Shown here one piece after another: positions 4,626 to 50,992 of a DNA stretch of 64,000 bases (its first letter is position 1; every line of letters starts with the position of its first letter). Under the pieces are notes generated by a model. It was not told where the DNA came from. It searched no databases and saw only the letters and a list, made by a program, of their open reading frames with translations. Source of the DNA: a virus; IMG/VR virus record IMGVR_UViG_3300044824_000082, positions 4,652-68,651 of that record; one strand, 5' to 3'. Position numbers and translations under genes: made by a program.

Positions 4626-4724
4626 ATGGCAAACGAAGGTCAAGGATATGTGGCGGCACCGGGGTTCGGGAATCCCGTTTCGTACTTGGGGCCAGCGGCG
4701 ACAGTGACGTTTGTTCCGGATTAA
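4626..4724 (+). CDS. 32-aa peptide MANEGQGYVAAPGFGNPVSY...
   Basis: strong AAAGGTTTAAGTAG promoter at leaderless spacing; GFG-x-P motif also in the N-terminus of 4139. Confidence 0.45.
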   Translation: MANEGQGYVAAPGFGNPVSYLGPAATVTFVPD

Positions 4725-22898: not shown

Positions 22899-23504
22899 AT
22901 GCCATCTGGAATCTATCAGCGTACGCCGGAGCAGTTAGAAAGACTTCGAGAAGCGGGACGAAAGTTGGGTTCGGTTCAGGGCCCGAAGAATGCTAAGTCT
23001 GGCAGATTTCAGTCTGTTGAGTGGAAAGAGCGGGCGGCTCGACAGGGGCGAAAGAACGTTGAATCCGGGCTTTTGGAGCGGATTAGTCTGCCGTCACGGT
23101 TCAAGAAAGGCGAGATAAGAACGACAGCGCAGCGTGAGGCGAGTGCACGGGGCGGTGTGAAGACGATGCTCAAGATTCGCGGGCGTCAGGGGCCCAATGA
23201 AGAAGAGAAGCGGCTTCGTGCAGAATTGGATAAGTTGGGGATTGAGTTTAAACCGGAAGTGTATTTGGGTGATGGTATGGGAATTGCAGATGTGGTAGTT
23301 GGGAAGGTTGTGGGTGAGTTGGACGGCGGCGGGCATTGGGTAAATTTCGCGCGCAAGAAAGGGGTTACTGACGAAGAATATCGTTGCGGAATCGCGGCCA
23401 AAGACGCGAGACATGACAAGCGCAGGAGGCATAATGGTTACGTCGTGATTCGGGATTCGGACCCGATTCGATTGGCGAACAGGATTAAGGAGGTAGTACA
23501 ATGA
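22899..23504 (+). CDS. PD-(D/E)xK (Vsr/DUF559-like) homing-type endonuclease
   Basis: MPSGIYQRTPE N-terminus, basic repeats, ADVV..ELDGGGHW..KDARHD; own TTTTAAATA box; paralogue of 39264. Confidence 0.75.
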   Translation: MPSGIYQRTPEQLERLREAGRKLGSVQGPKNAKSGRFQSVEWKERAARQGRKNVESGLLERISLPSRFKKGEIRTTAQREASARGGVKTMLKIRGRQGPNEEEKRLRAELDKLGIEFKPEVYLGDGMGIADVVVGKVVGELDGGGHWVNFARKKGVTDEEYRCGIAAKDARHDKRRRHNGYVVIRDSDPIRLANRIKEVVQ

Positions 23505-24127
23505 ATACCAAAGTTGGGACCAACTGGCGAGGGTTTACGGTGGGGCACAGGATTTCGGGCCACGAGAAGTGCGGGCGCATGCACGGCCATAACCTTCGGG
23601 TGCGGGTAGAGGTAGAAGGAGACATTGACGCCAAGACGGGAATGGTGGTGGATTTCGGGGTGCTGAGCATGGACTTGGCAGAGATTGTCGAGCCGTGGGA
23701 CCACAAGTTCCTCGCGCCAAAGGATTCTGCGAGGTTGGGATGGTGGTACGGGGCGCAGTGGCTTGAGAAAGAAGCAGCATGCAGTACGGTTCTGCCATCG
23801 CGGGCGTACTTGATTGACTGGGGGTACGTGTTGCCGGCAGAAGACGTGGTGTTGTTGAACCTGTCTGTCATCTCGTCCGAGAATCTGGCGCACTGGATTC
23901 TGTGGCAGTTGATTACGAAGCCGTGGGCGATGGGCAAGCTGGTTCGGGTTCAGGTAAGCGAGAATGGCGAGAACATCGCGGAGGCAAGTCATTTTGTTCA
24001 GAAATACAGCAGCACGTCAAGTTGGACGTACACTGGACAGGGGCAGAATTGGTATGTTGGCCTCAATGCGAACAACGCGGCTGCGCCAGCGGGGAACTGG
24101 GTTCCGACATGGATTTACCCCCCGTGA
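23501..24127 (+). CDS. queD: 6-carboxy-5,6,7,8-tetrahydropterin synthase (PTPS/QueD)
   Basis: GHRI..KCGRMHGHN, GMVVDFG, WDHKFL, SSENLA, VSE motifs. Confidence 0.9.
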   Translation: MNTKVGTNWRGFTVGHRISGHEKCGRMHGHNLRVRVEVEGDIDAKTGMVVDFGVLSMDLAEIVEPWDHKFLAPKDSARLGWWYGAQWLEKEAACSTVLPSRAYLIDWGYVLPAEDVVLLNLSVISSENLAHWILWQLITKPWAMGKLVRVQVSENGENIAEASHFVQKYSSTSSWTYTGQGQNWYVGLNANNAAAPAGNWVPTWIYPP

Positions 24128-37636: not shown

Positions 37637-38383
37637 ATGGTATTCGAAGTAATCGACACCCCCGAAAAGGCATGGTTGTTAGGTTGGATTGCAACTGACG
37701 GGAACGTTGACAGGTATCAAGTCAGGATTATCCTGAAAGATGGCGACAGTGAACGTTACGTTTGTGACGAGTTCGTAAAGGTGGCCGGCGGCAAAGTGTT
37801 CTTGCGCGAAAAGACAAATGGGAAAGTAGAGCATTACAAGACGGTTACGTGGGAATTGAACGGGGTTGAAGAGTGTGAGAATCTCGTCAAACTTGGGATT
37901 GGCCCAAAGAAGTCATTGGTATTGGGTAAAGTGGCTGTTCCAGAACAGCTCCTTTGGCACTTCGTTCGTGGAGTGTTTGAGGGCGATGGTAGCGTTTGGC
38001 TGACAACGCAAACGGGGCGCGGCAGGCCGCAAATCTCGATTACAAGCGGCAGTAAAGTGTTCGCAGAATGGGTAGCCGAGATTACGGGCGGGAAGTTGTA
38101 TCCGAAGGAGAAGCCCCGGCGGAACACGTCGTACAGCATCGAGTTCGGCAACCGCGAGGTAATCGAGGCGTTTTACAAGCGGGCCTACGCAGACGCGGGT
38201 GAGTTCGTTCTTTTGCGAAAGAAGCAGAAGATTGAAGAGGGGCTCGGAGCATATTTCAGTTCTGAAGAGCGCGGTGAAATTGGACGGCAGAACGCAGTTC
38301 CGTGGGTAGAACAGTTCACGAAGAAGCACGGCATGAGTCCGATTGAGTGGAATCTGAAGAAAGGGGCGGGCCAATCACCTTAA
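37637..38383 (+). CDS. two-motif LAGLIDADG homing endonuclease
   Basis: AWLLGWIATDG and FVRGVFEGDGS; KKSL; LLRKKQK. Confidence 0.9.
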   Translation: MVFEVIDTPEKAWLLGWIATDGNVDRYQVRIILKDGDSERYVCDEFVKVAGGKVFLREKTNGKVEHYKTVTWELNGVEECENLVKLGIGPKKSLVLGKVAVPEQLLWHFVRGVFEGDGSVWLTTQTGRGRPQISITSGSKVFAEWVAEITGGKLYPKEKPRRNTSYSIEFGNREVIEAFYKRAYADAGEFVLLRKKQKIEEGLGAYFSSEERGEIGRQNAVPWVEQFTKKHGMSPIEWNLKKGAGQSP

Positions 38384-39860: not shown

Positions 39861-40874
39861 ATGCAAACAGACGAGTTGAGAAAGATAGTAGAGGTGCTGC
39901 GCGGTATGGAAGGAGACGGCACTACGTTAGTGTCGTACCTTGTAATGCCGAAGCGTTCCATAGCCGACGCCCGTGCCCGATTGGCGCGGGAAGTCGTAGA
40001 AGCCGAGAACATCAAGCTTCACAGCACACGACACGCTGTCGTAGCCTCGCTAACCAAGGCCCTGACAGCGGCCCGAGGCATGTCAGAAACCCCCGAGAAC
40101 GGTGTCGCGCTTTACGCCTCACCCACGGATACATGGCTCATCGAGCCACCCGAACCGATTCAGGCGAACGTGTATCGGTGCGGGAGCGAGTTCGTCTTGG
40201 AGCCGTTGGAGGCGATGCTGGCCTCGAAGGAGGTGTTCGCGTTGATAGTGATAGACAGGCAGGAGGCCACGTTGGGTTGGTTGCGGGGCAGTGCCATCGA
40301 AGAGGTGGCCTATTTCGAGTCCCGCGTGATGGGCAAGCACGATGCGGGCGGGCAATCGCAGCACCGCTTCGAGCGGCAAATAGAGCATCAGGCACACGAG
40401 TTCTTTGTGAAGGTGGCGGAGGCGGCAACGCAGGCTTTCGTGGACAAGAAGCTCACAGCCGTGGCAGTGGGAGGCCCGGGAGCCACGAAGGAGTTCTTTG
40501 TGAAGGAAGGGTATCTGGACTACAGACTGCAAGAAAAGGTGCTCCCTGCGTTTAATGTGGGGTACACGAACGAGGCGGGTTTGCGGGAACTGGCGCTAAA
40601 AGTAGAGGCACATCTGCCTGCGTTGGTGAGCGCCAAAGAGCGGGTGCTCCTGCAAGGGTTCTTTGCGGCGATTCGGGACGGCCGTGCAGCGTACGGCAAG
40701 GAACAGATTGCCCGGGCGATTGCGGAAGGGCGGGTAGAGAGTTTGATTCTGTCGCACGGGGTTCCGGTGCCAGCGGGATACAGTGGAGAGGTTCAGCGAG
40801 TCGGAGAGGCCGGGGACGAGGCGGCGGCGTTCAAGAAAGGCTTCGGTGGAATCGGCGCTTTGTTACGGTACTAA
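39861..40874 (+). CDS. prf1: archaeal-type class-1 peptide chain release factor (aRF1/eRF1)
   Basis: GTT (GTS loop), NIKL, PENG, YRCGSEF (YxCxxxF), KHDAGGQSQHRFER (GGQ), GGPG, FGGIGALLRY. Confidence 0.95.
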   Translation: MQTDELRKIVEVLRGMEGDGTTLVSYLVMPKRSIADARARLAREVVEAENIKLHSTRHAVVASLTKALTAARGMSETPENGVALYASPTDTWLIEPPEPIQANVYRCGSEFVLEPLEAMLASKEVFALIVIDRQEATLGWLRGSAIEEVAYFESRVMGKHDAGGQSQHRFERQIEHQAHEFFVKVAEAATQAFVDKKLTAVAVGGPGATKEFFVKEGYLDYRLQEKVLPAFNVGYTNEAGLRELALKVEAHLPALVSAKERVLLQGFFAAIRDGRAAYGKEQIARAIAEGRVESLILSHGVPVPAGYSGEVQRVGEAGDEAAAFKKGFGGIGALLRY

Positions 40875-42133: not shown

Positions 42134-42216
42134 GGCCCGGTGGGTCAGTCAGGAACGCCGCCGCGCTCAAGACGCGGTGTAGTAGTACAGCGCCGGTTCA
42201 AATCCGGCCCGGGCCA
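42134..42216 (+). tRNA. tRNA-Leu(CAA)
   Basis: cloverleaf; CCGCG-CT CAA GA-CGCGG; long variable arm; GTTCAAATC. Confidence 0.9.
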
Positions 42217-42330
42217 CTGTCGTATGGTATTGAACAGTGGGGTGCCCGAGCCAGTGTGCCAGCAGAGTGCATATCGTGAGTGGTATGACAGGGATAATGC
42301 AAGGATGGAGCGGAGGTATGGGCGATATAC

Positions 42331-42406
42331 GGGCCTGTAGTGGCAAATTTGGAAGAACGCCTGTTTCGCAAACAGGGGGTTCCGGGTTCGAATCCCGGCG
42401 GGTCCA
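42331..42406 (+). tRNA. tRNA-Ala(CGC)
   Basis: CCTGT-TT CGC AA-ACAGG; G3.U70. Confidence 0.93.
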
Positions 42407-42550
42407 TTCATTGGTGAAGGAAATGGGCGAAATCGTGCGGAATTGGAATCCAGAAAACAAGTCGTACGATGAGATGGCTCCGTGGGAGAAGGTGGAGAAC
42501 AACGTTTGGGCGGCTCGGTATGAACGGTTGTGTTTGAGGTTGATAGATGC

Positions 42551-42623
42551 GGGCTCGTAGTGGCAATGGAAGAACACTTCGTTGGCATCGAGGAGGTTGC
42601 GAGTTCGATTCTCGCCGGGTCCA
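42551..42623 (+). tRNA. tRNA-Ala(GGC)
   Basis: CTTCG-TT GGC AT-CGAGG; G3.U70. Confidence 0.92.
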
Positions 42624-42624
42624 T

Positions 42625-42697
42625 GACAGGGAAGCGCTCCGGGATGTGTTCGGGGTTCATACCCCCGAGGTTGGAGGTTCGACTCCTCCCTCTGTCA
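42625..42697 (+). tRNA. tRNA-Met(CAT), initiator-like anticodon stem
   Basis: CGGGG-TT CAT AC-CCCCG with consecutive G-C pairs; A8/U14. Confidence 0.85.
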
Positions 42698-42775
42698 TTT
42701 CATGGTTCACCCGCGATGAAGACGCCCCGATGTACACGGGTGCGGTGCGTGACTTTGTGGAACGGGTGGGCACAT

Positions 42776-42849
42776 GCTCCATTGGGGTAAATTGGGAAGC
42801 CTCGCAGGTTCTCGCCCTGTGGATGTGGGTTCGAATCCCGCATGGAGCA
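42776..42849 (+). tRNA. tRNA-Glu(CTC)
   Basis: GCAGG-TT CTC GC-CCTGT; acceptor GCTCCAT/ATGGAGC. Confidence 0.92.
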
Positions 42850-42853
42850 CCTT

Positions 42854-42926
42854 GCCCGCGCAGTCCGTACGGAACGGATTCTGCCCTGTCACGGCGGAGG
42901 AGTGGGTTCAATTCCCACCGTGGGCG
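42854..42926 (+). tRNA. tRNA-Asp(GTC)
   Basis: CTGCC-CT GTC AC-GGCGG; C8/G14; G73. Confidence 0.9.
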
Positions 42927-42931
42927 TCCGT

Positions 42932-43006
42932 GGGTTCGTGGCGCAAATAGGATAGCGCAAGGGCCTCTTAAGCCCGAGGTTGTGGGTTCAAGTCCCACCG
43001 AGCCCG
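42932..43006 (+). tRNA. tRNA-Lys(CTT)
   Basis: AGGGC-CT CTT AA-GCCCG. Confidence 0.92.
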
Positions 43007-43008
43007 TT

Positions 43009-43083
43009 GGGCTTGTGACTCAGCTTGGACACAGTGCCGCCCCGCGAAGGCGGAAGTCGAGGGTTCAAATCCCTCCAAGCCCG
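43009..43083 (+). tRNA. tRNA-Arg(GCG), C33
   Basis: CCGCC-CC GCG AA-GGCGG. Confidence 0.88.
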
Positions 43084-43084
43084 T

Positions 43085-43158
43085 GCGCTCGTAGCTTAAA
43101 CGGAGAGAGTGCCCGCCTCCTAAGCGGGGCGATACGAGTTCGATTCTCGTCGAGCGCG
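43085..43158 (+). tRNA. tRNA-Arg(CCT)
   Basis: CCCGC-CT CCT AA-GCGGG. Confidence 0.92.
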
Positions 43159-43159
43159 T

Positions 43160-43236
43160 GCACCTGTCGCCTAACTCGGATATGGCGCCACGCTTCGAAC
43201 GTGGAACGATTGCGGGTTCGAATCCCGTCAGGTGCG
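43160..43236 (+). tRNA. tRNA-Arg(TCG)
   Basis: CCACG-CT TCG AA-CGTGG. Confidence 0.92.
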
Positions 43237-43241
43237 TGTAT

Positions 43242-43323
43242 GGCGGAGTGGCTCAGTGTTGACGGCGCGGGCCTTAGAAGTCCGTACGAGGAAACAACGC
43301 AGGTTCAAATCCTGCCTCCGCTA
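43242..43323 (+). tRNA. tRNA-Leu(TAG)
   Basis: CGGGC-CT TAG AA-GTCCG; extended variable region. Confidence 0.85.
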
Positions 43324-43324
43324 C

Positions 43325-43396
43325 AGCCCGATAGTGTAGTGGCGCGCATGGGAACCCTACAAGTTCTCGGTGGGAGTTCAATTCTCTCTCGGGCTA
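43325..43396 (+). tRNA. tRNA-Val(TAC), C33
   Basis: GGAAC-CC TAC AA-GTTCT; acceptor AGCCCGA/TCGGGCT. Confidence 0.82.
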
Positions 43397-43398
43397 TT

Positions 43399-43471
43399 CC
43401 TCACGTAGTTCAATCGGTAGAACACCGGCCCGTAGAGCCGGGTGTTGCTGGTTCAAATCCGGCCGTGGGGA
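43399..43471 (+). tRNA. tRNA-Tyr(GTA), C33
   Basis: CCGGC-CC GTA GA-GCCGG; C1-G72 and short variable loop (archaeal/eukaryal Tyr identity). Confidence 0.9.
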
Positions 43472-43472
43472 C

Positions 43473-43543
43473 GCGTCCATCAGTCAGTGGTAGGCTCCCG
43501 CATCGCCAGTGCGGTGACTCGGGTTCGATTCCCGGTGGGCGCA
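43473..43543 (+). tRNA. tRNA-Gly(GCC), C33
   Basis: CCGCA-TC GCC AG-TGCGG; GCG acceptor start; A73. Confidence 0.9.
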
Positions 43544-43544
43544 T

Positions 43545-43712
43545 ATGAACGAGGAAGAGAGAACGAAATTAGAAGAGGAGTTCCCGATTGTAGACTGTAA
43601 AGGGTGCGGGCATTGTACATGTGCCCATGAACACAGTACAGGAAAATGTCATCTGGTTTGGTGGGACATGAAAGACATGTTAAGGTGTGACTGTCAGGAA
43701 TTCGTTCTATGA
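43545..43712 (+). CDS. small Zn-finger protein inside the tRNA array (not in ORF track)
   Basis: MNEEERTKLEEEFPIVDCKGCGHCTCAHEH..KC..CDCQEFVL; same module as 1584. Confidence 0.55.
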   Translation: MNEEERTKLEEEFPIVDCKGCGHCTCAHEHSTGKCHLVWWDMKDMLRCDCQEFVL

Positions 43713-43715
43713 AGC

Positions 43716-43787
43716 GCGTCCAAGGTGTTGACAGTGACATATCGGGCCTCCAACCCGAAGTACGGGGCGCACGTCCCCGTGGGCGCA
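43716..43787 (+). tRNA. tRNA-Gly(TCC), C33, non-canonical T-loop
   Basis: TCGGG-CC TCC AA-CCCGA; T-arm CGGGG-CGCACGT-CCCCG. Confidence 0.8.
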
Positions 43788-43790
43788 TAT

Positions 43791-43865
43791 GCCACCGTAG
43801 CGAAGTCCAGACATCGCGCCCGCCTCGTAAGCGGGAGTTCGCCGGAGCGAAGCCGGCCGGTGGCT
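43791..43865 (+). tRNA. tRNA-Thr(CGT), non-canonical T-loop
   Basis: CCCGC-CT CGT AA-GCGGG; T-loop AGCGAAG; U73. Confidence 0.85.
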
Positions 43866-43869
43866 TTAT

Positions 43870-43955
43870 GGACGGGTGGCCCAATCAGGAAAGGCGTCCG
43901 CCTCGAAAGCGGATTCTCAGCGATGAGAGTGGGGGTTCAAATCCCCTCCCGTCCG
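43870..43955 (+). tRNA. tRNA-Ser(CGA)
   Basis: TCCGC-CT CGA AA-GCGGA; long variable arm; G73. Confidence 0.92.
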
Positions 43956-43958
43956 TTC

Positions 43959-44030
43959 GCCGGCTTAGCCTAACAGGAGGGCGCCACCCTGAAGAGGTGG
44001 AGATTGGCGGTGCAAGTCCGCCAGCCGGCA
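43959..44030 (+). tRNA. tRNA-Phe(GAA)
   Basis: CCACC-CT GAA GA-GGTGG; T-loop TGCAAGT. Confidence 0.88.
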
Positions 44031-44032
44031 TT

Positions 44033-44105
44033 GGGCGTGGAGCTAATCAGCAGAAGCGCGTGTCTGATACACACGAAGTAGGAGGGGCGGCACCTCCCGC
44101 GCCCA
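44033..44105 (+). tRNA. tRNA-Ile(GAT), non-canonical T-loop
   Basis: CGTGT-CT GAT AC-ACACG; T-loop GGCGGCA; G8. Confidence 0.82.
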
Positions 44106-44108
44106 TGT

Positions 44109-44180
44109 GCCGAGGTAGCTCAGTAGCAGAGCACTCGACTGTTAATCGAGTACGCGAAGGTGCAAGTCCTTCTCTCGGCG
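44109..44180 (+). tRNA. tRNA-Asn(GTT)
   Basis: CTCGA-CT GTT AA-TCGAG; T-loop TGCAAGT; G73. Confidence 0.9.
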
Positions 44181-44181
44181 T

Positions 44182-44267
44182 GGAGGGATGGCCCAGTTGG
44201 CTACGGCGCGGGTTTGCTAAGCCCGTTTCGCGGAAGCGATTCGCCGGTTCGAATCCGGCTCCCTCCG
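44182..44267 (+). tRNA. tRNA-Ser(GCT)
   Basis: CGGGT-TT GCT AA-GCCCG; long variable arm. Confidence 0.92.
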
Positions 44268-44268
44268 T

Positions 44269-44339
44269 GTCGTCCGGGCAGGACAGCCATGCGGGGGCCC
44301 GCAGAGCCTCAGAACCCGGTGCAACTCCGGGGGACGACT
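44269..44339 (+). tRNA. tRNA-Cys(GCA), C33
   Basis: GGGGC-CC GCA GA-GCCTC; U73; T-loop TGCAACT; G8. Confidence 0.82.
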
Positions 44340-44530
44340 TGTGCCCAAAGTGCGGACACGTTCATTCGTTCTTGTCAGGGAAGTGTAACACTGTCTTGGA
44401 TAGATGGTTTGAGTGTGGGTGTCAAGGATGACGACGGACACGATAGTGACGGTAGTGGTGATTGGGATTCTTGCGGCGTGGATTACGTTCGTGATTCGTT
44501 ACTGGTCTAAGTTCATGGAGTGGTTGGAAT

Positions 44531-44905
44531 ATGAAGCTCCCGATTAAGGAACACAAAAGCAAGCACCCTGCGAGTGATGTCAAGACGGCGTCACTGATGG
44601 CCTTCGTGGTGCGGCGGGGGAAGGTAGTGACGGTGGGTTACAATCGAAGGGTGTTTCCGAACGGAGAGGCGTTCTCCCAGCACGCGGAGGAAGCGGCGCT
44701 CAAGAAGGCGGGAAGTCGGGCGAAGGGAGCCACGCTGTACGTGCTTCGGTTCAAGAAGGACGGTAGCCGTGGGATGGCGCGTCCCTGTGGACGGTGCCAC
44801 GACACGTTGAATCGGGCGGGAATCGTGCGGGTGTTCTTTTCGCTGGACAACGTGGACAGGTGGGGAAAGTTGATATGGCAGAACGCACAATGGATAGAGG
44901 TATAG
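44531..44905 (+). CDS. Zn-dependent cytidine/dCMP/tRNA deaminase-superfamily protein inside the tRNA array
   Basis: GYN, HAEEAAL (HxE), ATLYV, ARPCGRC (PCxxC); stop codon overlaps tRNA-Gln. Confidence 0.9.
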   Translation: MKLPIKEHKSKHPASDVKTASLMAFVVRRGKVVTVGYNRRVFPNGEAFSQHAEEAALKKAGSRAKGATLYVLRFKKDGSRGMARPCGRCHDTLNRAGIVRVFFSLDNVDRWGKLIWQNAQWIEV

Positions 44906-44977
44906 CGCCGTGGAGTAGCTGGACAAGCCCACCCGGCTCTGACCCGGGAGACAGAGGTTCGAATCCTCTCGGCGCTA
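44904..44977 (+). tRNA. tRNA-Gln(CTG)
   Basis: CCCGG-CT CTG AC-CCGGG; A1-U72 (archaeal Gln identity). Confidence 0.92.
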
Positions 44978-44984
44978 TCCTTAC

Positions 44985-45059
44985 GGGCGTGTCGTCTAAT
45001 CTGGTTCAGGATAGCTGGCCCCAGACCAGCAGATGTCGGTTCAAATCCGGCCTCGCCCA
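44985..45059 (+). tRNA. tRNA-Trp(CCA), C33
   Basis: GCTGG-CC CCA GA-CCAGC; one acceptor mismatch. Confidence 0.82.
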
Positions 45060-45061
45060 TC

Positions 45062-45136
45062 GGGCGTGTCGCCTATTGGGATGGCACCTGTCTTATAAGC
45101 TGGACAAAGGAGCGAGTTCGATTCTCGTCACGCCCA
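45062..45136 (+). tRNA. tRNA-Ile(TAT)
   Basis: CCTGT-CT TAT AA-GCTGG (one U.U mismatch); acceptor GGGCGTG as in Ile(GAT); 8-nt variable region. Confidence 0.75.
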
Positions 45137-45140
45137 TTGT

Positions 45141-45213
45141 GGGGCTGTGGTGTAACTTGGAAGCATCCGGCGCTCGGAACGCCGAGGTACAGGTTCAAAT
45201 CCTGACAGTCCCA
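45141..45213 (+). tRNA. tRNA-Pro(CGG)
   Basis: CGGCG-CT CGG AA-CGCCG; GGGGC acceptor start. Confidence 0.9.
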
Positions 45214-50554: not shown

Positions 50555-50992
50555 ATGTATCTGGTTGATTTGTCGAACAACAGTACGATTTACGTTTTCC
50601 CGTTGACAGCATCGCTGGCGTACAATATCACGGTTTCAATGACGCCGATGCCGATACCATTGCAGAACTTTCCTTTGCTTTTGAATTTTGGCGGCGCATC
50701 GCCGACGATTACGATTGATTGGGTGATTACAGGTGGACCCGGCGGAGCGCCGAATAACTATCAGAACAATTACACAGGAACGGCGCAAGGCGATTACATT
50801 CAGCTTACGCAGAACATTGGTTGGGGTTCGAGTACGTCGGGGTATGAATTGTGGCTGCCCGAAGTGAGTACGAATCCTATGTCACCGTTAGGGGTTAACT
50901 GTTTCCTCACGCAGCTTTCGGTAACGTACCCGGCGGGGCAAGTCAATGCGTACACTTGCTCGGCAACCTTTGCGCTCGGAACGGTTGTCTGA
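50555..50992 (+). CDS. putative distal tail protein
   Basis: directly after the tape measure gene; PIP..LNFGGASPTITIDW. Confidence 0.55.
   Translation: MYLVDLSNNSTIYVFPLTASLAYNITVSMTPMPIPLQNFPLLLNFGGASPTITIDWVITGGPGGAPNNYQNNYTGTAQGDYIQLTQNIGWGSSTSGYELWLPEVSTNPMSPLGVNCFLTQLSVTYPAGQVNAYTCSATFALGTVV

Follow-up and report, generated by a model that had tools for sequence, protein, structure and literature searches.

The contact between G18 in the D-loop and U55 in the T-loop, like the two bases themselves, is among the most conserved features of transfer RNA (tRNA) and provides anchors for gene finders, modification enzymes and textbooks. Here we analyse a 64-kb stretch of DNA (the window) from a 68.6-kb virus record (IMG/VR record IMGVR_UViG_3300044824_000082, positions 4,652 to 68,651; estimated completeness 47%), in which six genes of a tRNA array carry G55 and can be read with A18, and we compare this apparent alternative construction of the tRNA elbow (that is, the corner formed by the D-loop and T-loop) with tRNAs and T-loops elsewhere.

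In ordinary tRNA, residue 18 is described as inserting between residues 57 and 58 and forming one hydrogen bond to pseudouridine 55, while G19 pairs with C56 to form a stacking platform for the ribosome, RNase P and other factors. In FMN and cobalamin riboswitches, the T-loop is reported to follow the pattern UGNRA in 88.7% and CGNRA in 10.9% of cases, and in these an adenosine nearly always intercalates between loop positions 4 and 5, making two hydrogen bonds to the sugar edge of the G at position 2. The published account of the T-loop motif treats UUCRA (the tRNA type) as a separate class and names further variants (an rRNA GGAAG loop, and G...G and C...A forms), and both T-loop types were functional in a riboswitch screen, with differing strength. 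In a yeast suppressor tRNA, single mutations at tertiary pairs were not tolerated.

Two further bodies of work bear on virus-encoded tRNAs. The CRISPR-associated Schlafen nuclease CbCash, a bacterial enzyme characterised on Escherichia coli tRNAs, cuts mainly in the T-loop, just 5' of U55 in the UUC motif, and a single mutation of U54 or U55 abolishes cleavage; for another Schlafen protein, RorSlfn5, the target is the anticodon arm. Changes in the anticodon loop are known to let phage tRNAs evade anticodon nucleases (van den Berg et al. 2023; T5 against PARIS and retron Ec78), and the eLife paper on phage tRNA escape does not mention the T-loop or D-loop. Among archaeal viruses, Halogranum tailed virus 1 (HGTV-1, NC_021328) was described in 2026, with tRNAscan-SE, as having 34 tRNA genes, three putative pseudogenes and tRNAs for all amino acids but His.

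Six tRNA genes with G55 in a viral array

Combining ARAGORN, Rfam and a parse of each tRNA into standard segments, we delimited one array on the plus strand of the window:

42134-45213, + strand: array of 26 tRNA genes for 19 amino acids, in three runs separated by short open reading frames (ORFs)

Genes within each run are spaced 1–4 bases apart, and no tRNA-His was seen among the 26. The segment parse, in which positions 18 and 19 are assigned by loop-length rules and not from a structure, places G55 in six tRNAs (Gly(TCC), Thr, Phe, Ile(GAT), Asn and Cys), and the other 20 read TTC at positions 54–56. All six lie in a run of eight of the 26 tRNAs at 43716-44339; the two remaining members of the run are canonical class II Ser genes:

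43716-43787, + strand: tRNA-Gly(TCC); positions 54–56 CGC, D-loop AG, C54.C58, A8.U14, C33; 21/21 stem pairs; ARAGORN at 80% threshold
43791-43865, + strand: tRNA-Thr(CGT); positions 54–56 AGC, D-loop AG, A54.A58; 21/21 stem pairs; Rfam 50.9 bits
43870-43955, + strand: tRNA-Ser(CGA), class II; canonical GG/TTC, within the G55 block
43959-44030, + strand: tRNA-Phe(GAA); positions 54–56 TGC (T54 G55 C56 A57 A58), D-loop AG or GG; Rfam 64 bits
44033-44105, + strand: tRNA-Ile(GAT); positions 54–56 GGC, D-loop AG, G54.G58, G8.A14; 20/21 stem pairs; ARAGORN at 90% threshold
44109-44180, + strand: tRNA-Asn(GTT); positions 54–56 TGC (T54 G55 C56 A57 A58), AG in a 7-base D-loop; Rfam 63.3 bits
44182-44267, + strand: tRNA-Ser(GCT), class II; canonical GG/TTC, within the G55 block
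44269-44339, + strand: tRNA-Cys(GCA); positions 54–56 TGC (T54 G55 C56 A57 A58), D-loop AG, G8.G14, C33, T73; 20/21 stem pairs; ARAGORN at 90% threshold

These tRNAs depart from the conserved elbow set G18/G19/U54/U55/C56/R57/A58 in a restricted manner: U55 is replaced by G in 6/6 and positions 54 and 58 differ in three of the six, with G19, C56 and purine 57 retained throughout. The D-loop contains AG without GG in five, and the Phe loop (ACAGGA) can be read as AG or GG; in all six, the D-loop G that is able to pair with C56 is immediately preceded by an A. Among the U55 tRNAs of the array, 19 of 20 have GG in the D-loop, the exception being Leu(TAG) (Fisher p = 5e-4 within the window). The original prediction, made by a model from the letters alone, had named the six tRNAs with their T-loop triplets, the replacement of the D-loop GG by AG (ambiguous in Phe) and the clustering of the set at 43716-44339; the parse confirmed each of these, the clustering having a chance probability of 0.0018.

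For Thr, Phe, Asn and Cys, the G55 genes are the sole tRNAs in the window, and none of the six encodes the CCA 3' end. Contigs from two other public runs match 43748-44115 and 43881-44225 with zero differences and, given that these runs reproduce the block identically, the bases are not assembly or sequencing errors. The same DNA is present in several peat metagenome runs, and no RNA run holding this stretch was found among the public runs listed.

Gene calls and scanner behaviour

With default settings, ARAGORN reported 22 tRNAs in the window, Thr, Phe and Asn among them; lowering the threshold to 90% added Ile(GAT) and Cys, and lowering it to 80% added Gly(TCC) and an Ala(CGC) at 42331-42406, which the program mis-parsed and which, re-parsed by hand, has a normal cloverleaf containing GG and TTC. 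The Rfam tRNA model (RF00005, gathering threshold 29 bits) also found 22 tRNAs and scored Phe (64 bits), Asn (63.3 bits) and Thr (50.9 bits) among the best, and over Gly(TCC), Ile(GAT) and Cys it returned nothing even at E <= 10, its speed filters having possibly dropped them. The expectation that standard scanners may score such tRNAs as pseudogenes is therefore partly right: default ARAGORN and Rfam both overlook three of the six, but the other three score among the best.

Could the deviant genes be decaying tRNA pseudogenes or chance cloverleaves? We consider this very improbable. Three of the six do fall below the ARAGORN default and go unreported by Rfam, and two carry C33 where U33 is expected; their cloverleaves, however, are intact (Gly(TCC) 21/21, Ile(GAT) 20/21 and Cys 20/21 pairs), and the six together have 20–21 of 21 stem pairs, which is also the range seen in the array's canonical tRNAs (7/4/5/5-bp stems, 7-base anticodon and T loops). 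Between their neighbours in the array, moreover, Gly(TCC), Ile(GAT) and Cys leave no more than 1–4 bases free. Decay is further contradicted by the intact G19, C56 and R57, by anticodons that fill otherwise empty amino-acid slots, by the identity of the G55 block in independent samples, and by the recurrence of the same coupled change in many tRNAs elsewhere and in a sole cellular tRNA-Tyr (see below).

C33 in place of the near-universal U33 is a separate peculiarity of the array, where it was seen in 7/26 tRNAs (Arg(GCG) at 43009, Val at 43325, Tyr at 43399, Gly(GCC) at 43473, Gly(TCC) at 43716, Cys at 44269 and Trp at 44985). It occurs elsewhere in 13/311 tRNAs of the other viral loci, in 19/159 tRNAs of the genome loci among the matches listed and in 0/44 of a cellular set (G001, introduced below), and it is independent of G55.

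Coupling of positions 18 and 55 in other viruses and genomes

Viral contigs were scanned for an anticodon loop like those of Asn/Phe/Ile/Thr/Tyr tRNAs with, downstream and at the spacing expected in a tRNA, the T-arm word found in tRNA-Phe and tRNA-Asn of the window, a pattern that fixes G55 and sets no condition on the D-loop. Because D-loop lengths vary and covariance-model alignments consequently do not hold positions 18 and 19 in one column, a register-free test was used (that is, whether GG is present or absent in the loop). The scan gave 77 viral stretches, in which ARAGORN at default called 342 tRNAs, 311 of them distinct. In the distinct set, GG was absent from 81 of the 96 G55 tRNAs and present in 200 of the 206 U55 tRNAs (Fisher p = 4.6e-50). 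AG was found in 80 of the 81 GG-less G55 loops; when the loop interiors were shuffled, the count averaged 55.1 and never exceeded 72 in 2000 trials. A length-aware assignment of positions 18 and 19 across all 342 tRNAs, duplicates included, gave AG in 95/102 G55 tRNAs and GG in 218/231 U55 tRNAs, and most of the G55 loops that do contain GG have it at positions 15–16, with AG next. Other elbow bases are fully or largely retained in the 96 viral G55 tRNAs (C56 in 96/96, purine 57 in 96/96 and U54 in 89/96).

The A18/G55 variant spans 18 amino-acid families, 39 anticodons and 26 viral contigs and, given that a tRNA for one amino acid is not a copy of a tRNA for another, the double change must have arisen many times. 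Applied to a reference-genome collection, the same pattern yielded at least 120 stretches with 159 distinct tRNAs among the matches listed, in which GG was absent from 51/58 G55 tRNAs and present in 91/100 U55 tRNAs. A by-product of high G+C content was considered and ruled out, as the variant is also found in arrays of 40% G+C (L152). No G55 tRNAs were found in the cultured phages phiCbK (0/23) and Vibrio phage D479 (0/26).

Covariation across related viruses had been named as a check on the claim that the paired changes mark real tRNA genes under constraint. The coupling of positions 18 and 55 is indeed present across viral contigs and recurs in the 18 families, in HGTV-1 and in an archaeal tRNA-Tyr, although no homologous array was found. 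Searches with the window's capsid protein and with a release-factor-like protein encoded near the array gave no homologous tRNA array for comparison: an alignment of the capsid protein (25 of 48 relatives plus the window's own) led to 6 viral and 53 metagenome loci with only one tRNA among them, and the release-factor-like protein had no locus or close relative in viral contigs. The array had no megablast match among cultured phages, and the distant mode gave single-tRNA matches only.

Whole variant sets, homologous pairs and a cellular case

Some arrays consist almost wholly of G55 tRNAs (34/37 in the viral contig L119, 13/14 in L063 and 24/24 in L215), and others are mixed (12/27 in L091). 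The exceptions in L119 are two Met(CAT) and one Val(AAC), and class II Leu tRNAs are among the variants in the L119 and L215/L343 arrays. The L215/L343 array, which is entirely TGC with AG, lies at the end of a 174-kb contig (C12) of a Planctomycetota genome bin (G004), whereas all 30 dispersed tRNAs on other contigs of the same bin have GG with TTC or TCC.

Two homologous pairs place the variant next to an ordinary counterpart. The window tRNA-Asn shares 82.7% identity with the Asn tRNAs of the haloviruses HF1/HF2 and 79.2% with that of HCTV-7; HF2 and HCTV-7 have GG/TTC where the window has AG/TGC. Likewise, tRNA-Gly(TCC) of L152 has GG/TTC and that of the window AG/CGC, the two sharing the same unusual D-arm, A8.U14 and C33. 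L152 is a compact array of at least 13 tRNAs in a Thermoplasmata bin (positions 4640736-4643566 of its contig), and tblastn of the window ORFs against the 80 kb around it gave no match. A covariance model adds to L152 approximately six tRNAs of 97–133 bases, which presumably bear introns.

HGTV-1 contains four variants (Trp, Asn and His with TGC, and Asp with AGC and A54.U58) among 36 ARAGORN calls at the 90% threshold, all with AG and without GG. The tRNA-His annotated in its GenBank record (L311 1325-1398; record positions 50624-50697) is one of them, and our guess is that tRNAscan-SE rejected it because of the variant elbow.

The variant is also found in cellular tRNA-Tyr genes:

L188 3691-3764, L240 7162-7235 and L254 3244-3317: A18/G55 tRNA-Tyr of three uncultured archaeal genomes

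In one of these genomes (G001, approximately 1 Mb), for which 44 distinct tRNAs were collected from 45 Rfam matches, the single tRNA-Tyr found has AG and TGC, and all other 43 tRNAs are canonical at positions 18 and 55 (42 with TTC and one with TCC), the bin being possibly incomplete. The same tRNA-Tyr occurs, among the matches listed, in two further species-level archaeal genomes, the sizes being approximately 1–1.3 Mb.

These distributions bear on the possibility of near-neutral drift between two roughly equivalent elbows, with virus tRNAs under fewer side constraints. Mixed arrays are common, as drift would produce (6/26 in the window, 4/36 in HGTV-1 and 12/27 in L091), and both T-loop types work, at differing strength, in the riboswitch screen. 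Drift would, however, hardly reach 24/24 and 34/37 across unrelated tRNA families, single-mutant intermediates were not tolerated in yeast, and the variant is rare in cellular tRNAs (1/44 in G001 and 0/30 of the dispersed tRNAs in G004); we therefore regard this explanation as unlikely.

Structural reading of the A18/G55 elbow

We propose that the six genes encode working tRNAs whose elbow is built differently. In this arrangement, A18 and G55 would take over the contact of G18 with pseudouridine 55, and G19, C56 and purine 57 would stay in place, such that the viral tRNAs would carry the generic UGNRA T-loop with its adenosine in place of the tRNA-specific UUCRA, the three-dimensional contact being deduced from the bases. 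As in the general T-loop motif, position 2 is G and position 4 a purine in 6/6 of the G55 tRNAs of the window; at loop positions 1 and 5, where U.A or C.A is expected, Phe, Asn and Cys have U.A, and Thr, Ile(GAT) and Gly(TCC) have A.A, G.G and C.C. Positions 18 and 55 would change together because the general T-loop solution pairs a G at position 2 with an intercalating A, and the double, compensating change would therefore preserve the fold. From the sequences compared here, we consider it highly probable that the change is a structural, compensatory one.

Positions 54/58 and 8/14

The original prediction had extended the idea of compensation to two further pairs of the tertiary core. At positions 54/58, the values it gave are right (A.A in Thr, G.G in Ile(GAT) and C.C in Gly(TCC)). 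Across 302 viral U55 or G55 tRNAs, the combination 54.58 is U.A in 286, A.U in 8, A.A in 3, C.A in 3, C.C in 1 and G.G in 1, and all ten cases without A58 also lack U54. The window Thr T-loop recurs exactly in a tRNA-Ala of L072, a C54...C58 loop recurs in a tRNA-Cys of L078, and a G54...G58 loop occurs in L152. Given that non-A58 always accompanies non-U54 and that the loops recur, the two positions change together, albeit in small numbers; both sides change, and the support for co-variation is moderate. Counts of standard pairs are informative for 8-14 only, as A.A, G.G and C.C at 54-58 are not standard pairs.

The 8/14 shifts likewise have the values predicted (C.G in Asp, A.U in Met and Gly(TCC), G.G in Cys and G.A in Ile(GAT)), and two of them fall in tRNAs outside the G55 block:

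42625-42697, + strand: tRNA-Met(CAT); A8.U14 swap, otherwise GG/TTC
42854-42926, + strand: tRNA-Asp(GTC); C8.G14, otherwise GG/TTC; Rfam 40.3 bits

In 49 tRNAs from the window, L152 and two haloviruses, 8-14 is U.A in 36, A.U in 4, C.G in 1, G.U in 1 and another combination in 7. Six cases are changed on both sides against 1.1 expected by shuffling (0/500 shuffles reach six), although some of the A.U cases are homologous. The notion of compensation at 8/14 is thus supported in part: the A8.U14 swap recurs, but G8.G14 and G8.A14 have no evident compensation. The A.A, G.G and C.C combinations at 54.58 and the A8.U14 swap may thus be further paired changes in the same tRNA core. In L152, A8.U14 was seen in Gly(TCC), Val and Met, and one T-loop has G54, C55 and G58.

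Possible selective reasons

G55 cannot be isomerised to pseudouridine. Loss of the U54-U55-C56 motif therefore means that no pseudouridine 55 is formed, and such a tRNA should not be a substrate for enzymes that read the motif. The G55 tRNAs of the window are virus-encoded and altered at U55, a base that CbCash requires, and an A18/G55 elbow would let viral tRNAs escape T-loop-directed host-defence nucleases of the CbCash kind, in parallel with the escape of phage tRNAs from anticodon nucleases. Because CbCash needs U54 and U55 and phage tRNAs evade anticodon nucleases, this is the most specific hypothesis available; arguing by analogy, we tentatively suggest it as the driver, with somewhat more doubt than conviction. 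Two genome bins with G55 arrays (G004 and G007) encode a Schlafen domain, a co-occurrence that is weak because the domain is also present in 5/14 control genomes. In its broadest form, the A18/G55 elbow might be a widespread counter-defence of bacterial and archaeal viruses against T-loop-cutting nucleases, with full sets replacing a destroyed host tRNA pool, a generalization that we find attractive but doubtful.

Taken as a whole, working tRNAs with an alternative elbow that escape nucleases make the best explanation of the sequence data, and we judge this combination to be evenly balanced between right and wrong. Several points weigh against it. Three of the six G55 tRNAs are not found by the Rfam tRNA model; the frequency of G55 in the viral set is inflated, as its loci were found by a pattern that demands one G55 T-loop; and the Fisher p-values overstate the evidence, because tRNAs of one contig or family are not independent. 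CbCash, furthermore, is a broad nuclease, reported to cut 28 E. coli tRNAs, and variants that make up 6/26 of the tRNAs here and 4/36 in HGTV-1 would give only partial cover from such an enzyme. Finally, the variant also occurs in cellular tRNA-Tyr, where a counter-defence motive is not obvious.

An alternative that draws on the same chemistry (that is, that G55 is not convertible to pseudouridine) is that the A18/G55 elbow is stable without pseudouridine 55, modified U54 or chaperone-like modifying enzymes, which would help viruses that make tRNA fast or shut off their hosts. The UGNRA/adenosine T-loop works in unmodified riboswitches, entire arrays have switched (L119 and L215) and a cellular tRNA-Tyr uses the variant, all of which fit. 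The other 43 tRNAs of G001 keep the ordinary elbow, however, and modification enzymes are therefore presumably present and in use there; moreover, U54 is retained in 89/96 viral G55 tRNAs, which would be needless if all T-loop modification had been dropped. We consider this account rather improbable, if worth keeping in view.

It is also conceivable that the distinction is one of self versus host, such that a nuclease or modifying enzyme of the virus or a helper hits host UUC T-loops and the virus's own G55 tRNAs are exempt. Near-complete variant sets could replace the host tRNA pool, and the release-factor-like gene adjoins the window array; yet exemption would extend to 6/26 window tRNAs only, and no Schlafen-type domain was found in this virus record, in the L119, L063 and L091 records (several records being fragments) or in HGTV-1. 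Pfam scans of ORFs around four arrays likewise revealed no tRNA nuclease, and across 20 ORFs beside the L119, L215, L063, L091, L190 and L229 arrays they revealed no tRNA nuclease or tRNA enzyme, the same ORFs encoding an HNH endonuclease, PhoH, a D12-class DNA adenine methylase, a radical SAM protein, a DNA ligase and a phosphoesterase. Such a mechanism seems quite unlikely to us.

Nuclease escape, if true, would extend the tRNA arms race from the anticodon loop to the structural core of the molecule and would explain the full tRNA sets of some viruses.

The virus record and the surroundings of the array

We read the record as that of an archaeal tailed virus, on the strength of its predicted genes. 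The window encodes a capsid protein of the tailed-virus type, with relatives that include proteins labelled Thermoplasmatales and Parvarchaeum, and in addition a prohead protease, a family B DNA polymerase, an archaeal-type primase large subunit and an ERCC4 nuclease. Further features of the window are as follows:

23501-24127, + strand: QueD-like 6-pyruvoyl-tetrahydropterin synthase gene (E = 1.4e-22)
37637-38383, + strand: LAGLIDADG-type homing endonuclease gene, directly 3' of the capsid gene
39861-40874, + strand: release-factor-like gene, 337 residues, with eRF1 domain 2 (E = 1.8e-34), domain 3 and a GGQ motif
43545-43712, + strand: 55-codon Cys-rich ORF directly upstream of the G55 block; no Pfam family
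44340-44431, + strand: 30-codon Cys-rich ORF directly downstream of the G55 block
44531-44905, + strand: cytidine/dCMP deaminase-fold protein, 124 residues, inside the array between the Cys and Gln tRNAs
45062-45136, + strand: tRNA-Ile(TAT) with an 8-base variable region, decoding AUA directly, without a modified CAU tRNA

The release-factor-like gene sits 1.3 kb upstream of the tRNA array. The QueD-like gene hints at 7-deazaguanine synthesis for the modification of DNA or tRNA. The two Cys-rich mini-ORFs bracket the G55 block exactly and their Cys spacing is alike by eye; BLASTP between the two gave no alignment. Two longer open frames on the plus strand that cross tRNA genes (42547-43548, 333 codons; 43709-44431, 240 codons) were rejected as artefacts of G+C-rich tRNA sequence.

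Significance and comparison with known systems

A natural, recurrent and compensated variant would represent a second way of building the tRNA elbow and would tie tRNA to the general T-loop motif. G18/U55 and A18/G55 tRNAs would also form a clean pair for probing the role of pseudouridine 55 and of its synthase. As such tRNAs can be missed or flagged as pseudogenes (3/6 here), the tRNA counts of viruses are probably too low.

Of the known systems, HGTV-1 is alike: it too is a tailed virus of archaea, its tRNA set is near-complete and lies in arrays interrupted by small ORFs and homing endonucleases (LAGLIDADG and HNH genes likewise lie among its tRNAs), and four of its tRNAs are of the A18/G55 kind. 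It differs in its haloarchaeal host, the window virus coming from peat metagenomes; between the window and HGTV-1 we saw no protein or DNA relatedness, the only matches to other haloviruses being those of the tRNA-Asn kind. The available text of the HGTV-1 tRNA paper does not contain the words T-loop or D-loop, such that the feature is present in that virus and not described there. With four variant tRNAs in a cultured pair, HGTV-1 and Halogranum make the question testable at the bench.

The structural parallel is with the FMN and cobalamin riboswitches (and also rRNA and RNase P), where U-G-N-R-A with an inserted A corresponds to T54-G55-C56-R57-A58 with A18; the C-G-N-R-A and rRNA G-G-A-A-G loops named in the riboswitch paper resemble the window Gly(TCC) and Ile(GAT) loops. 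The partner of the riboswitch T-loop is a separate loop of a regulatory RNA, whereas that of the window tRNAs would be their own D-loop, which has to maintain the G19–C56 pair as well. In the literature searched, we found no structure of a tRNA with the A18/G55 arrangement, nor any description of a natural A18/G55 tRNA class, subscription journals and supplements being mostly uncovered and an earlier mention in a tRNA compilation being possible.

The functional parallel is with the phage tRNAs that escape anticodon nucleases, which are viral tRNAs changed at the bases that a host nuclease needs, with decoding kept; resistance of the window tRNAs would follow by analogy, CbCash being the kind of enzyme that G55 would defeat. 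Those escapees carry anticodon-loop changes without a compensating partner, whereas the window tRNAs combine a change in the core with compensation at a second site. Public records already contain these genes, with those of HGTV-1 annotated as tRNAs; the apparent novelty lies in recognising an alternative elbow whose changes are coupled, which recurs and which is enriched in virus arrays.

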